Shown: positions 3,988 to 10,997 of the stretch, piece by piece
How the letters are laid out: the number at the start of each line of letters is the position of its first letter
Position numbering within the stretch: position 1 is the first letter of the stretch
Assembly: GCF_048403405.1 (NCBI RefSeq)
Contig: NZ_CP183129.1
Source: Escherichia coli
GTDB lineage: Bacteria; Pseudomonadota; Gammaproteobacteria; Enterobacterales; Enterobacteriaceae
Strand: one strand, 5' to 3'
Length of the DNA stretch: 64,000 bases
The notes under the pieces: model-generated
Seen by the model: the letters and a program-made list of their open reading frames with translations, nothing else
Databases searched by the model: none
What the model was told of the DNA's origin: nothing
Made by a program: the position numbers and the translations under genes

Positions 3988-6900
3988 TTACGCCTTCTCA
4001 ATGTTGACTAAGAACGCTTTATATTCCGGCGTTTGCGAGTTTGCATCACCGACATTCGGCGTCAGAGTGTTAGCGATATAACCTTTACGCGCGACACCCT
4101 CAAAGCCCCAGTGGATTGGAATACCCACCGTTTCAACCTGCTGACCGTTTACATTCAGCGGCTTCAGACGGCGCGTTACCACAGCCACCGCGCGGATAAA
4201 GCCACGCTTGCTGGATACGGTGACACGGTCGCCATTGGCGATGCCTTTCGCCGCCGCCAGCGTTTCGCTGATTTCCACAAACTGTTCCGGCTGAGCAATG
4301 GCGTTGAGCAATGCATGCTTAGTCCAGGTGTGGAAGTGCTCGGTCAGACGATAGGTCGTACCCACATACGGGAACTGCTCTTTTTTACCCATCCGCAGCG
4401 CGTCTTGTTCATACAGACGAACGACCGGGTTAGACACCACGTTCGGATGCAGCGGGTTAGTGCCCAGCGGCGTTTCAATTGGCTCGTAGTGTTCCGGGAA
4501 CGGACCTTCCGCCATTTTGTTGATGGCAAACAGGCGTCCCATCCCTTCCGGCTGCATGATAAACGGTCCGGTTAGTGTACCTGGCGCGGCATTGCCGAAG
4601 TCCGGAATATCGTTACCCGTCCACTTGCTGCCGTTCCACTGGATCAGCATCCGTTTCGGATCCCACGGTTTACCGTTGATATCCGCCGAAGCACGGTTGT
4701 AGAGTACGCGACGGTTGAGCGGCCACGCCCAGGCCCATCCCAGCGTATTCCCCAGACCGGACGGGTCGGAGTTATCGCGGTTAGCCATCTGGTTGCCCTG
4801 CTCTGTCCAGCTACCGGTGTAGATCCAGCAAGAAGATGCGGTTGTACCGTCATCACGCAGATGCGCAAAGCTACTCAGCAACTGACCTTTCTTCGCAATC
4901 AGCACGCCATTGGCATCATAGAGATCTTCCAGCGCGTAGCCGTTGTTCTCTTTAGCTACTTCGTCAGATTGCGGTTCGTGCGGCTGCTTGTAGTTCCAGC
5001 TCATCTTCATCAGCGGTTCTACGCCTTTACCACCTTCGGCCTGGTACAGCTCGCGCAGATGATGGTAGATACCCGCCAGAATTTCGCCGTCGTTACGCGC
5101 TTCGCCCGGCGCGTCCTGACCTTTCCAGTGCCACTGCAACCAGCGACCGGAGTTAGCAATAGAACCATCTTCCTCAGCAAAGCAGGTCGAAGGCAGACGG
5201 AATACTTCAGTCTGAATAGACGCAGGATCGACATCGTTCGACTCGCCGTGGTTCTGCCAGAAGGTAGAAGTTTCAGTCACCAGCGGATCGATAACCACCA
5301 TATACTTCAGCTTGCTCAGGCAGCTTACCACTTTGTTTTTGTCCGGGAAGGACGCAACCGGGTTAAAGCCCTGGCAGAAATAACCGGTGACTTTGCCTTC
5401 ATCCATCATGTTGAAATACTTGATGACGTCGTAGGTCTGGTCCCACTTGGGCAGCCAGTCGTAGCCCCAGTTGTTCTCTTTCTGCGCAGCATCGCCGTAG
5501 AAAGATTTCATCAGGCTAACGAAGAACTTCGGATAGTTGCTCCAGTAGTTCACCTGATCAGCCAGCGTCGCTTTCGGCGTGTTCGCTTCCAGATACGACT
5601 GCAAATCAACCTGTTTTTCTGACGGCAGCGTCAGATAACCCGGCAGGCTGGTAGAGAGCAGGCCTAAGTCGGTCAGCCCCTGAATGTTGGAGTGACCACG
5701 CAATGCGTTCACGCCGCCACCGGCCATACCCATGTTACCGAGCAGTAACTGGATCATCGCCATAGTACGGATGTTCTGCGCACCCACGGTGTGCTGCGTC
5801 CAGCCCAGCGCGTAAAGGAAGGTGGTTGTGCGATCCGGTGCGCTGGTGGAGGCCAGCACTTCACACACTTTCAGGAAGTCGGCTTTTGGCGTACCACAGA
5901 TGTTTTCTACTACGTCCGGCGTGTAGCGGGAAACGTGCTCTTTCAGCAAGTTCCACACACAGCGCGGATGAGTCAGTGTTTCATCGCGTTTCGCATAGCC
6001 GTTTTCATCGAACTGATAGTTCCAGGACGATTTATCGTATTGACGTTTTTCAGCGTCGTAGCCGCTGAACAGACCGTCTTCGAAAGCAAAATCATCACGC
6101 ACCAGCAGACTGGCGTTGGTGTAATGCTTAACGTATTCGGCGTTGATTTTGTTGTTTTCGATCAGGTAGCGCAAAACGCCAGACAGGAACGTAATGTCCG
6201 TACCGGAACGAATAGGTGCGTAAATATCCGCTACAGAAGCGGTACGCGTAAAACGGGGATCGACAACGATCAAGGTTGCATCGTTGTTGTTTTTCGCTTC
6301 CATCGCCCAGCGGAAACCGACGGGATGCGCTTCAGCAGCGTTACCGCCCATCACCATTACGACGTTAGCGTTTTTGATATCCACCCAGTGGTTGGTCATC
6401 GCACCGCGACCAAATGTTGGAGCAAGACTTGCTACCGTTGGTCCGTGTCAGACGCGCGCCTGGTTGTCTACCGCCAGCATCCCGAGGGAGCGGGCAAATT
6501 TCTGGGTCAGCATCCCGGTTTCGTTGCTGGCACCGGAGGCACACAGCATACCGGTAGAAAGCCAACGGTTTACCGTTACGCCCTGCTCGTTCTTTTCAAT
6601 AAAGTTAGCGTCACGGTCAGCTTTCATCAGCTTCGCAATACGGGAGAATGCTTCATCCCAGCTAATGCGCTGCCATTTGTCAGAACCTGGCGCACGATAT
6701 TCCGGGTAGCGCAGACGGTTTTCGCTGTTGACGTAATCCAGCAAACCGGCCCCTTTCGGGCACAGCGCACCACGGCTTACCGGATGATCCGGGTCACCTT
6801 CAATGTGATAAATCGCTTCTCTGGCGTTTTTCGCGCCATCACCCAGGCTATACATCAATAGCCCGCAACCTACGGAACAGTATGTGCAGGTGTTACGGAT

Positions 6901-7035
6901 CTCTTTAGCGCGTAATAATTTGTAGTTTCGCGCCTGAGCCAGTGCTTGCTTTGGGGCAAAGCCCAATGCCGCTACTGTTGTTCCAGCCATACCGCCCGCG
7001 CAGATTTTAAAAAATTGTCTGCGACTGACGTCCAT
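3988..7035 (-). CDS. fdnG: Formate dehydrogenase-N alpha subunit, selenocysteine-containing molybdoenzyme; in-frame UGA at 6448..6450 decoded as Sec
   Basis: ORFs 6448..7035 (195 aa, Tat signal RRQFFK) and 3988..6399 are in the same frame separated only by one TGA; local sequence ...NQARV-U-HGPTVA matches the Sec active-site context; total 1015 aa. Confidence 0.93.
6400..6447 (-). other. SECIS-like stem-loop region immediately 3' of the fdnG UGA
   Basis: mRNA sense CACGGACCAACGGUAGCAAGUCUUGCUCCAAC... can fold (GCAAGUCUUGC) directly after the UGA, as expected for bacterial SelB-dependent recoding. Confidence 0.6.
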
Positions 7036-7266: not shown

Positions 7267-8148
7267 ATGACACGACAAAAAGCAACGCTCATAGGGCTAA
7301 TAGCGATCGTCCTGTGGAGCACGATGGTAGGATTGATTCGCGGTGTCAGTGAGGGGCTCGGCCCGGTCGGCGGTGCAGCTGCTATCTATTCATTAAGCGG
7401 GCTGCTGTTAATCTTCACGGTTGGATTTCCGCGTATTCGGCAGATCCCGAAAGGCTATTTACTCGCCGGGTGTCTGTTATTCGTCAGCTATGAAATCTGT
7501 CTGGCGCTTTCCTTAGGATATGCGGCGACCCGTCATCAGGCGATTGAAGTGGGTATGGTGAACTATCTGTGGCCCAGCCTGACAATTCTCTTTGCCATTC
7601 TGTTTAATGGTCAGAAAACCAACTGGCTGATTGTACCAGGATTATTATTAGCCCTGGTTGGCGTCTGCTGGGTGTTAGGTGGTGACAATGGATTACATTA
7701 TGATGAAATCATCAATAATATCACCACCAGCCCATTGAGTTATTTCCTGGCGTTTATTGGTGCGTTTATCTGGGCAGCCTACTGCACAGTAACGAATAAA
7801 TACGCACGCGGATTTAACGGAATTACCGTTTTTGTCCTGCTAACGGGAGCAAGTCTGTGGGTTTACTATTTTCTCACGCCACAACCAGAAATGGTATTTA
7901 GCACGCCAGTCATGATTAAACTCATCTCTGCGGCATTTACCTTAGGATTTGCTTATGCTGCATGGAACGTCGGTATATTACATGGCAACGTCACCATTAT
8001 GGCGGTAGGTTCGTATTTTACGCCCGTCCTTTCCTCAGCGCTTGCAGCCGTGCTGCTCAGCGCCCCGCTGTCGTTCTCGTTCTGGCAAGGCGCGCTAATG
8101 GTCTGCGGCGGTTCCCTGCTCTGCTGGCTGGCGACACGTCGTGGCTAA
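7267..8148 (+). CDS. yddG: Aromatic amino acid exporter (DMT/EamA family)
   Basis: 293 aa, about 10 TM segments, recognised as YddG; divergent from fdnG. Confidence 0.93.
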   Translation: MTRQKATLIGLIAIVLWSTMVGLIRGVSEGLGPVGGAAAIYSLSGLLLIFTVGFPRIRQIPKGYLLAGCLLFVSYEICLALSLGYAATRHQAIEVGMVNYLWPSLTILFAILFNGQKTNWLIVPGLLLALVGVCWVLGGDNGLHYDEIINNITTSPLSYFLAFIGAFIWAAYCTVTNKYARGFNGITVFVLLTGASLWVYYFLTPQPEMVFSTPVMIKLISAAFTLGFAYAAWNVGILHGNVTIMAVGSYFTPVLSSALAAVLLSAPLSFSFWQGALMVCGGSLLCWLATRRG

Positions 8149-8406
8149 AATAATTGTCGGGTCTACGGCCCGGCAGTTAATCAGATAAATTCCGACAATA
8201 TAAAAAAATAAATTTCAAATACCAGTAGTTCACCTTATATTTCATTTCGACTTCGATCACATATCGATAAATAATATTATTTCATCTATTTTTCTCATTG
8301 TTTTTAATCACCATTCTATTTTAAAAACAGTATGTCATTTATAAATGACGCCGTTTAAAATTCGTTTAGAAAATACGTTTAACGATAATTAAAAGGATTC
8401 TGTTAA

Positions 8407-9507
8407 ATGAAATTAAAAATAGTTGCGGTGGTTGTAACTGGTTTGTTAGCTGCGAACGTAGCACACGCTGCCGAAGTCTATAACAAGGATGGTAATAAAC
8501 TCGACCTTTATGGCAAGGTTACCGCTCTACGTTATTTTACTGATGATAAGCGTGACGATGGTGATAAAACTTATGCCCGTCTCGGCTTTAAAGGAGAAAC
8601 GCAAATCAATGATCAAATGATTGGTTTTGGTCACTGGGAATATGATTTTAAAGGCTATAACGATGAAGCCAACGGCTCGCGCGGTAACAAGACCCGTCTG
8701 GCCTATGCAGGTTTAAAAATTAGTGAATTTGGCTCTCTGGACTATGGTCGTAACTACGGTGTCGGCTATGACATTGGTTCATGGACCGATATGTTGCCAG
8801 AATTTGGTGGCGATACCTGGAGTCAGAAAGATGTCTTCATGACATACCGTACTACCGGTGTGGCAACCTATCGCAACTACGATTTCTTCGGCTTAATTGA
8901 AGGTCTGAACTTTGCCGCGCAATATCAAGGCAAAAATGAACGCACTGACAATGGCCATCTTTATGGTGCTGACTACACGCGTGCCAATGGTGACGGTTTC
9001 GGTATCTCCTCAACTTATGTTTATGATGGCTTTGGTATCGGTGCGGTGTATACCAAATCCGATCGGACAAATGCGCAGGAAAGAGCCGCTGCTAATCCTC
9101 TCAATGCCTCCGGTAAGAATGCAGAACTGTGGGCTACAGGTATAAAATATGATGCCAACAACATCTACTTTGCAGCTAATTACGCTGAAACATTAAACAT
9201 GACCACCTATGGCGATGGTTATATCTCTAACAAAGCACAAAGTTTTGAAGTAGTGGCACAATATCAATTCGACTTCGGCTTGCGCCCATCACTCGCTTAC
9301 CTGAAATCGAAAGGCAGAGATCTGGGCCGCTACGGCGACCAGGACATGATTGAGTATATCGACGTTGGTGCGACGTATTTCTTCAACAAAAATATGTCGA
9401 CCTATGTTGATTATAAAATCAACCTGATTGATGAAAGCGACTTTACCCGTGCCGTAGATATTCGCACCGATAACATCGTCGCAACGGGCATTACCTATCA
9501 GTTCTAA
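8407..9507 (+). CDS. ompD: General porin of the OmpC/OmpF/PhoE family, OmpD/NmpC-like; intact counterpart of the K-12 yddL pseudogene position
   Basis: Signal peptide [21 protein letters not shown] then [16 protein letters not shown]; C-terminal ...GITYQF; 366 aa; sits next to yddG as ompD does in Salmonella (symbol by synteny and family, from memory). Confidence 0.8.
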
Positions 9508-9520
9508 CATCCTCTCCTGA

Positions 9521-9547
9521 CCAGCCCTTCTCTGGGCTGGTTTTTGA
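9521..9547 (+). terminator. Rho-independent terminator after the porin gene
   Basis: ccagccc-ttctct-gggctgg followed by TTTTT, 14 nt after stop. Confidence 0.8.
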
Positions 9548-9676
9548 TTTAAGTGCTGCTGTATGACTCCTTAAGTAAAAATGAGCAATTTTTGATATTT
9601 CTGGTCACTCACCTCAATTAATATTCTTCCATACCCTCCGGGGACATCTTACTATAATATTTATTGATGTGTGATT

Positions 9677-10936
9677 ATGACCAATATTAATACAGCTTGT
9701 GTAAAAAATAATGCCAGTTATCAATTAAATAACGCATTACCTAACAAAGAAACCATCTCCAGCAATTTTTGTGAACGACTGGCAAAATGGGGTAATAAGT
9801 CGCTTAATAATGGTGAAGAAAGAGCAATTGCCGTAGAGCGAATTAAAGAAGCTTACAATTCGAACATGGCATCTCTTGATTTGTCATATCTTGATTTGAG
9901 TGAGTTACCGACTATCCCCTCGACAGTTAACACGTTAAATCTGGAAAACAATTGTCTCACTTGTCTTGACTTTACTGACAATGCCAGCCTCGTCAATATC
10001 AACCTCAGCTTTAATAAAATTAAAACGATAACCTTTCCAAATGAATCAAAACTGGAAAATATTTATATTGATCACAACAATCTGGAAAGTTTGGATTTAA
10101 AAAATCAGCATTCATTGGTTAACCTGGAAGCGCAAAATAACAATCTGACAAAAATTAACATTTCTGATAGTTATAAACTGAAATTTCTTAATCTTGATTA
10201 TAACAAGCTAGCATCGCTGGATCTCTCCCGGCAAGAATCTCTGATTGAGTTAAGTGCCCATCACAATATGATCACTGACCTTATATTACACAATCATCCC
10301 AGGATGAAAAAAATCACTTTAAACGACAACCATATTGCACATTTAAACGCGAAAACCACTACAAAGCTGGAATATTTAAACTTAAGCAATAACAATTTAT
10401 TGCCAACAGATGACATTGATCAATTAATATCATCAAAACATCTTTGGCATGTATTAGTTAACGGCATCAACAATGATCCACTTGCCCAAATGCAGTACTG
10501 GACTGCAGTAAGAAATATAATTGATGACACTAATGAAGTGACCATTGAATTATCTTATAACCTGGCAATCACAAATATCGATACCAGCGATGAACATCTT
10601 GTAGAAGTAAGCGAGAATTCCGAAGGAAATCATATAAAAGACAATGACTCAATGTCTATTCGTTATAGATCAAAATATTATTCCAGAGAGTACGATTTAA
10701 TAGAAGAAGAAACAATATTTTCTGACGCAGAACTAAAAGCCATTCTGCCTATGCATCGCATGTACGGGGTTGGTGACTATAAGTCAAATTCCTCTTCTCT
10801 ACCCTCACACTCGGGGCTAAAGGACCCAACGGGCACACCCGTCTGTTATTATATTCATAATGAGGATAAACCTTCCTTAGGTTATGGTTCAACACCCAAT
10901 AATTGGTTAAGCCAATCCTTTTCTACAGAGTTATAA
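9677..10936 (+). CDS. yddK: Leucine-rich repeat protein with an IpaH/SspH/YopM-like LRR N-terminal region; no signal peptide; no NEL ligase domain
   Basis: ORF 9671..10936 (GTG; ATG at 9677 chosen); N-terminal ...ERIKEAYNSNMASLDLSYLDLSELPTIPSTVNTLNLENNCLT followed by about 21-22 aa LxxLxLxxNxL repeats; AT-rich; symbol by position relative to K-12 yddK. Confidence 0.75.
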   Translation: MTNINTACVKNNASYQLNNALPNKETISSNFCERLAKWGNKSLNNGEERAIAVERIKEAYNSNMASLDLSYLDLSELPTIPSTVNTLNLENNCLTCLDFTDNASLVNINLSFNKIKTITFPNESKLENIYIDHNNLESLDLKNQHSLVNLEAQNNNLTKINISDSYKLKFLNLDYNKLASLDLSRQESLIELSAHHNMITDLILHNHPRMKKITLNDNHIAHLNAKTTTKLEYLNLSNNNLLPTDDIDQLISSKHLWHVLVNGINNDPLAQMQYWTAVRNIIDDTNEVTIELSYNLAITNIDTSDEHLVEVSENSEGNHIKDNDSMSIRYRSKYYSREYDLIEEETIFSDAELKAILPMHRMYGVGDYKSNSSSLPSHSGLKDPTGTPVCYYIHNEDKPSLGYGSTPNNWLSQSFSTEL

Positions 10937-10997
10937 AACACATCCTGATTTATCAAGGGTGATAAATCAGAAAAGAAAGTATTACTACGGAGCAGTT

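Follow-up and report, generated by a model that had tools for sequence, protein, structure and literature searches.

The porin locus between yddG and narU

The window, the whole stretch of Escherichia coli DNA that was analysed computationally (64,000 nucleotides), carries a porin gene directly after yddG. The product of yddG is an aromatic amino acid/methyl viologen exporter of the DMT family. The gene fdnG precedes yddG on the opposite strand, and narU lies beyond two LRR genes that follow the porin. The features of the locus, in window coordinates, are as follows.

7267–8148, plus strand: yddG, the upstream neighbour (NCBIfam YddG equivalog, 471 bits against a cutoff of 194)
8149–8406, plus strand: yddG–porin intergenic region, 258 nt, 28% GC, presumed promoter and 5' UTR
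8407–9507, plus strand: ompD-type porin gene, 366 aa (ORF, Porin_1 match, phylogeny, identical annotated protein)
8407–8469, plus strand: predicted porin signal peptide, residues 1–21 (read from the sequence; solved mature porins align from residue 22)
8755–8850, plus strand: loop L3, pore constriction, residues 117–148 (PEFGG motif, acidic D122 and E132)
9519–9552, plus strand: intrinsic-terminator-like hairpin, GACCAGCCC-TTCTCT-GGGCTGGTT and a T-run (terminator scan)
9671–10936 and 10959–12251, plus strand: two low-GC LRR genes of the EspR2/EspR1 family (ORFs, LRR Pfam matches)
8685–10231, no strand: segment of 1,547 bp missing in K-12-type genomes (BLAST and junction sequences; CGG microhomology, 3 bp, at both ends)
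10549–11200, no strand: second K-12 deletion, 652 bp, between two ATTGA pentamers, fusing the LRR genes in frame

The porin reading frame runs uninterrupted from ATG to TAA and encodes 366 amino acids. The corresponding RefSeq protein is WP_000768393.1, which PGAP names 'porin OmpC'. The N-terminal segment is typical of Sec signals and carries an AHA cleavage motif; the mature protein begins with AE. The chain ends in ...GITYQF, with Y364, Q365 and F366 invariant in an alignment of 28 porins. The Pfam family Porin_1 (PF00267) covers the protein at profile positions 1–337 of 337 (E 2e-134), and about 50 solved porin chains (OmpC, OmpK36, OmpF and PhoE) align from residue 22 to the last residue (E 1e-127 to 1e-100), the strongest matches being OmpK36 and OmpC (E 1e-127). 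The full Porin_1 match and the end-to-end matches to solved porins argue that this is not a chance ORF. An earlier note on the window had described a complete 366-aa classical porin with a signal peptide and a C-terminal Phe; the ORF, the Porin_1 profile and the YQF end all agree with that description.

The residues that would line the pore are kept. D122, P131, E132 and G134 are invariant among the 28 porins, which include OmpF and OmpC, and F133 and G135 are nearly so. K37, R58, R97 and R148 fall in invariant columns of the same alignment, common to OmpF, OmpC and PhoE; the reference was the constriction of OmpF, formed by K16, R42, R82, R132, D113 and E117. An AlphaFold model of the porin, built with 28 homologues, has 16 barrel strands (mean pLDDT 75, pTM 0.75), and Foldseek comparison with OmpC (2J1N), OmpK36 (1OSM) and OmpF (1OPF) gives target-normalised TM-scores of 0.89–0.94. 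Sequence and model alike confirm the protein as a classical enterobacterial general porin by family, fold, pore residues and signals. The 90%-identity protein cluster that contains this porin also includes the 603-aa LepA/EF4 of Roseburia, one as the representative, evidently a clustering artefact.

A consensus scan of the intergenic region predicts an AAGGATT Shine–Dalgarno block, a GATCACA block and a −35/−10-like pair at 8332–8361. The last ~190 nt before the porin start align with the DNA upstream of ompD in Salmonella and C. koseri, with GATCACA and AAGGATT invariant, although the region as a whole measures 258 nt in E. coli and 524 nt in front of Salmonella ompD. Downstream, the terminator hairpin has a 9-pair stem with six GC pairs and is located 12 nt past the porin stop codon. 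The porin gene appears to form a separate transcription unit, running from the AT-rich upstream region to its own terminator. The 28% GC of the upstream region is compatible with H-NS silencing, which is speculation on our part.

No phage genes were found near the porin in the window. The two LRR genes encode proteins of 421 and 430 aa, have a GC content of 34–35% and are called 'espR1' by PGAP in O157; the EspR2/EspR1 family to which they belong is one of T3SS effectors. They do not occur at this locus in E. albertii, Salmonella or C. koseri. By gene content they were inserted later, between ompD and narU; they lie outside the porin unit and define the variable locus. Both LRR ORFs are open in the window; one or both are frameshifted or partial in the annotation of O157:H7 and TUM14771. 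ECs2073–2075 are listed as EspR genes in a published table.

The palindrome GTTACATTTAGTAAC, probably a conserved site of narU regulation, is located upstream of narU at window ~12380–12400, where E. coli with the island, E. coli with the empty site (MS 200-1) and E. albertii regain colinearity. Position 12380, at which the empty site of B2 and the boundary in E. albertii both resume, was considered as a specific recombination site and rejected; the conserved narU promoter region begins there. At the other end of the locus, fdnG reads as two ORFs (3988–6399 and 6448–7035, minus strand) owing to an in-frame TGA, which encodes selenocysteine, hence no pseudogene; RefSeq annotations give one fdnG of 1,015 aa. 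Further out, the genome of TUM14771 (99.98% identical) has an IS200/IS605-family tnpA annotated just past fdnI (window up to ~2249), K-12 homology with the window begins only at 2436, and a HigB/HigA pair occupies that area in E. albertii.

Descent of the porin and its remnant in K-12

The window porin is closest to the C. koseri porin (77.6% identity) and to Salmonella OmpD (73.7%), followed by NmpC/Lc (68.5%) and then the K-12 porins OmpN (62.0%), OmpC (61.7%), OmpF (60.3%) and PhoE (59.2%). A neighbour-joining tree (300 bootstraps) gave 99.7% support to the split between OmpC/OmpN/OmpF/PhoE and the OmpD/NmpC-type porins, which include the window porin, and 0% to a grouping of the window porin with OmpC/OmpN. 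Its description as OmpD/NmpC-like is borne out by this clade and by 73.7% identity to OmpD as against 59–62% to the four K-12 porins, which share its fold and family and form a separate clade. NmpC of the DLP12 prophage and Lc of phage PA-2 belong to the same OmpD/NmpC clade (~68% identity); unlike the window porin, they are prophage-borne and sit at other loci. Within the clade, the E. coli porin forms a long branch at the base rather than beside Salmonella OmpD, with 47% support. Because this placement has only 47% support, orthology rests mainly on position and on calibration with the flanking genes.

Gene order supplies the position. In Salmonella and C. koseri the locus reads fdnI-fdnH-fdnG (minus), yddG (plus), porin (plus), a GFA-family gene, an MFS transporter (minus), a TetR regulator, narU and narZ; the MFS transporter and the TetR regulator of the Salmonella locus we take to be smvA and smvR. 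The E. albertii genome CP034213 has the same porin after yddG, split by IS1 after codon ~84, and there the distance from the porin stop to the conserved region upstream of narU is within ~115 bp, without LRR genes. When E. coli is compared with Salmonella, the porin shows a proportion of synonymous differences of 0.718, and yddG and narU each show 0.708. As this divergence equals that of yddG and narU, the porin is as old at the site as its neighbours. The high dS to Salmonella (~2.4) was considered as a sign of xenology and rejected, since yddG and narU are equally saturated.

On position and flanking-gene divergence, the window gene is the positional orthologue of Salmonella ompD, inherited vertically at yddG–narU. 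Its reading as ancestral holds, given the same site in E. albertii, the flanking-equal synonymous divergence and the homologous upstream DNA. Its count as a 'fourth' general porin does not: K-12 already has OmpF, OmpC, PhoE and OmpN intact, which makes this one the fifth.

OmpD is the most abundant porin of Salmonella. Salmonella OmpD (STM1572) shares with the window porin its position, clade, length class, upstream DNA, L3 and pore residues, in addition to the 73.7% identity. The two proteins are 80% identical in the strands and 60% identical outside them, with indels in two loops; in L3, 26 of the 32 residues are identical. Such concentration of divergence in the loops is the usual porin pattern. 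Downstream the loci differ, as Salmonella ompD is followed by GFA-smvA-smvR and the E. coli locus lacks these genes. The proposed mirroring of the Salmonella yddG–ompD arrangement stands for the gene order and for the published methyl viologen link, which the passage of PMC4215857 citing Santiviago 2002 assigns to yddG, ompD and smvA; it fails for smvA and smvR, which are absent from the E. coli locus. By gene content, the three-gene methyl viologen arrangement of Salmonella is only partly mirrored in E. coli.

In K-12 MG1655 the order is yddG, yddL (96 aa), yddK, yddJ, narU. Residues 1–93 of YddL are identical to the window porin and are followed by KNL and a stop, and the region upstream of yddL (b1472) together with codons 1–93 is essentially identical to the window gene. 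Unlike the window porin, yddL is a 96-aa deletion remnant that lacks 273 codons and would be unable to form a barrel. The proposal that the porin fills the place held by yddL in K-12 is confirmed by the shared location and by this alignment. BLAST comparison shows the K-12 region to be colinear with the window apart from the two deletions in K-12. The 1,547-bp deletion takes porin codons 94–366, the spacer and, from the first LRR gene, the initial ~187 codons; the 652-bp deletion left yddK of K-12 as a chimera, in frame, of the first and second LRR genes, and yddJ is the tail of the second.

The locus has been described before. Okeke et al. 2011 (PMC3079680) identified it as EHEC O-island 62 (Z2239–Z2242), 1,548 bp between yddG and narU, and noted the likeness of yddL to the 5' end of Z2239 and of yddJ to the 3' end of Z2242. 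They listed O157, O55:H7, the group D strains 042, UMN026 and IAI39, as well as SMS-3-5 and Shigella as carriers, placed EAEC 042 orfs 1601–1599 in the island and read yddK as an insertion. Judged by the junctions, 'O-island 62' is a microhomology deletion in K-12, not an insertion in EHEC, which accounts for the published 1,548 bp, and yddK is a chimera made by deletion, not an inserted gene. Chaudhuri et al. (2010, PMC2808357) described the EAEC 042 copy as "an apparently functional ompD" and equated 'nmpC/ompD'. From the colinearity of the locus, the K-12 remnant of ompD is yddL and not the DLP12 nmpC pseudogene. The EAEC 042 gene (Ec042-1601, 'ompD') and Z2239 of EHEC EDL933 are the same gene at the same locus as the window porin, with only allelic differences.

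Distribution, selection and predicted expression

Alleles were counted by megablast, using queries specific to each junction, across 5,426 complete E. coli genomes, with the following result.

Porin 3' three-quarters present (at least 80% coverage): 1,101 genomes (20.3%), including O157:H7, O55:H7 and O145:H28
K-12 deletion junction: 3,132 genomes (57.7%)
yddG followed directly by narU, with neither porin nor LRR genes: 1,116 genomes (20.6%), including Nissle and MS 200-1

The porin has been lost through at least two independent deletions in ~78% of genomes. By published lineage assignments, carriers, O157:H7 among them, fall mainly in phylogroups D, E and F. When the 1,101 genomes were sampled at even spacing, all 59 full-coverage porin copies had an intact CDS in the PGAP annotation. 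The median number of places of the porin per genome is one, and the gene is chromosomal at one fixed site. At least 1,000 contigs have a record of WP_000768393.1; TUM14771, SX48 and ECSC054 share this identical protein despite differing DNA. Other truncations occur in a few genomes, among them THO-008, where window 9339–10455 is deleted and the 3' end of the porin is fused to the first LRR gene. The earlier note was correct that the porin of this strain is intact; the strain is not special in this respect, as 1,101 of the 5,426 genomes have the gene and its presence is already published. The gene, the locus and the presumed function are already known, and the presence of the gene is a common polymorphism.

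Six extracted porin alleles all measure 1,101 nt, and no internal stop or frameshift was found in them. The window and O157 alleles differ at 19 synonymous and three nonsynonymous sites (dS 0.084, dN/dS 0.042), which puts the O157 protein three amino acids off that of the window; the LRR neighbours are frameshifted in O157, whereas those of the window are open. The comparison with the O145 allele gives 17 synonymous differences and one nonsynonymous difference (dN/dS 0.016). With dN/dS of about 0.02–0.045 for the window against the O157 and O145 alleles, the substitution pattern argues for strong purifying selection on the porin and for use of the gene where it is retained.

The codon adaptation index (CAI) of the window porin is ~0.38, which resembles that of phoE (0.36) and ompN (0.47), unlike that of ompC (0.82) and ompF (0.66); Salmonella ompD has 0.68 and the C. 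koseri gene 0.72. The weights followed the Sharp and Li table, and control genes gave sensible values.

Three chromosomal sRNAs, MicC (at codons 23–26 of the CDS), RybB and SdsR, have target sites in Salmonella ompD. Pairing was evaluated with RNAduplex, using Salmonella ompD and K-12 ompC and ompF as controls and shuffled sequences as the null. At codons 23–26 the MicC duplex falls from −15.8 kcal/mol with Salmonella GAGGUAUAUAAC to −6.8 with E. coli GAAGUCUAUAAC, and the best MicC duplex anywhere from −80 to +150 of the E. coli porin gene was no better than in shuffled sequence. RybB (−13.7, compared with −18.3 in Salmonella) and SdsR (−24.2, compared with −33.5) were likewise indistinguishable from shuffles on the E. 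coli porin. The positive controls gave −26.5 (ompC/MicC), −17.4 (ompC/RybB) and −18.4 (ompF/RybB). Retention of Salmonella-type regulation by MicC, RybB and SdsR in E. coli was therefore rejected, the sites being degraded. Such sRNA control characterises how the Salmonella gene is regulated and does not define orthology.

Because of its low CAI and the lost MicC, RybB and SdsR sites, the E. coli porin is probably expressed at a low level or conditionally, much as PhoE and OmpN are, unlike the major porin of Salmonella. Expression, proteomic or functional data on the E. coli gene were not found in the searchable literature, where two genome-level papers describe it. A genomic SELEX study (PMC3946193) was considered as evidence on the porin promoter and set aside, since what it describes is limited to an 'internal promoter' within yddLKJ and leaves the porin promoter unmentioned.

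Alternative readings, proposed function and significance

The gene is in all likelihood the E. coli positional orthologue of ompD, a classical 16-stranded trimeric general-diffusion porin, inherited vertically and still functional in ~20% of genomes. That it is instead a prophage-type NmpC/Lc, or an additional OmpC in keeping with the PGAP label, is scarcely credible. PGAP does write 'ompC' in all sampled genomes, the score with the NCBIfam OmpC subfamily model (495 bits) exceeds the cutoff of 484, and JGI calls some relatives 'outer membrane porin protein LC'; yet identity is 61.7% to OmpC and 68.5% to NmpC/Lc as against 74–78% to the yddG-linked OmpD porins, and the absence of bootstrap support for a grouping with OmpC/OmpN is matched by a phage-free neighbourhood and a single fixed chromosomal site. 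Phylogeny and gene context refute both identities. The PGAP label is, on these comparisons, a systematic misnaming of an ompD orthologue, and arises because the OmpC subfamily model barely passes its cutoff. A recent horizontal gain of the porin within 'O-island 62', together with the low-GC LRR genes, is very improbable for different reasons. Okeke et al. (2011), citing 33–36% GC, suggested that the entire island had been acquired recently, and the porin, on its long basal branch, does have lower values (44.3% GC, GC3 43.9) than Salmonella ompD (50.4% and 57.3). The truly low GC (34–35%) belongs to the LRR genes and not to the porin, whose GC3 is similar to that of phoE and ompN; in E. albertii the porin occurs with no LRR genes beside it, in Salmonella and C. 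koseri a porin occupies the same site with homologous upstream DNA, its synonymous divergence equals that of yddG and narU, and the 'island' amounts to the 1,547 bp that K-12 has lost. Comparative data of this kind largely refute the acquisition of the porin with the island.

Decay is the remaining alternative, in which the porin is effectively silent, intact by chance and without a contribution to fitness. Its loss in ~78% of genomes by independent deletions, the occurrence of other truncations and IS insertions, the low CAI and the lack of published expression data that we could find would all fit such a gene. A dN/dS of 0.02–0.045 at dS 0.05–0.09 would not, nor would six alleles free of frameshifts and stops, 59 of 59 sampled full-length copies annotated as intact, and the retention of all pore and BAM-signal residues. 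We consider decay improbable.

For the functional ompD orthologue that we favour, the sequence suggests the following path. The precursor would be exported by Sec and cleaved after Ala21, and the C-terminal YQF would direct folding by BAM. Loop L3 (PEFGG, D122 and E132) would fold into the barrel and face the basic cluster of K37, R58, R97 and R148. The resulting channel would be predicted to be size-limited and mildly cation-selective and to pass small hydrophilic solutes. Formation of a trimer and conductance would be expected from the family, and cooperation with YddG may occur.

It is possible, although we regard it as doubtful, that the OmpD orthologue has been re-purposed in E. coli from a constitutive major porin to a quiescent, conditional one, with low codon adaptation, an AT-rich upstream region that H-NS may silence, and its sRNA sites lost, yet under strong purifying selection in the ~20% of genomes that carry it. 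The low CAI and the degraded sRNA sites did not appear in the papers that we consulted on the E. coli gene; together with purifying selection they are mildly new and suggest regulatory divergence.

The porin repertoire sets the entry of small molecules and antibiotics, the receptors for phages and colicins, and the surface antigens of the cell. For resistance and phage–host data it matters that one-fifth of E. coli genomes, including O157:H7, O55:H7, O145:H28 and EAEC 042, carry a functional-looking OmpD and that K-12 does not. Under PGAP naming, genomes with this porin would seem to carry two 'ompC' genes. If the re-purposing is real, the porin could be a back-up entry route that alters antibiotic, phage or colicin susceptibility once OmpC or OmpF are lost, and E. 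coli OmpD could be a lineage-specific surface antigen.
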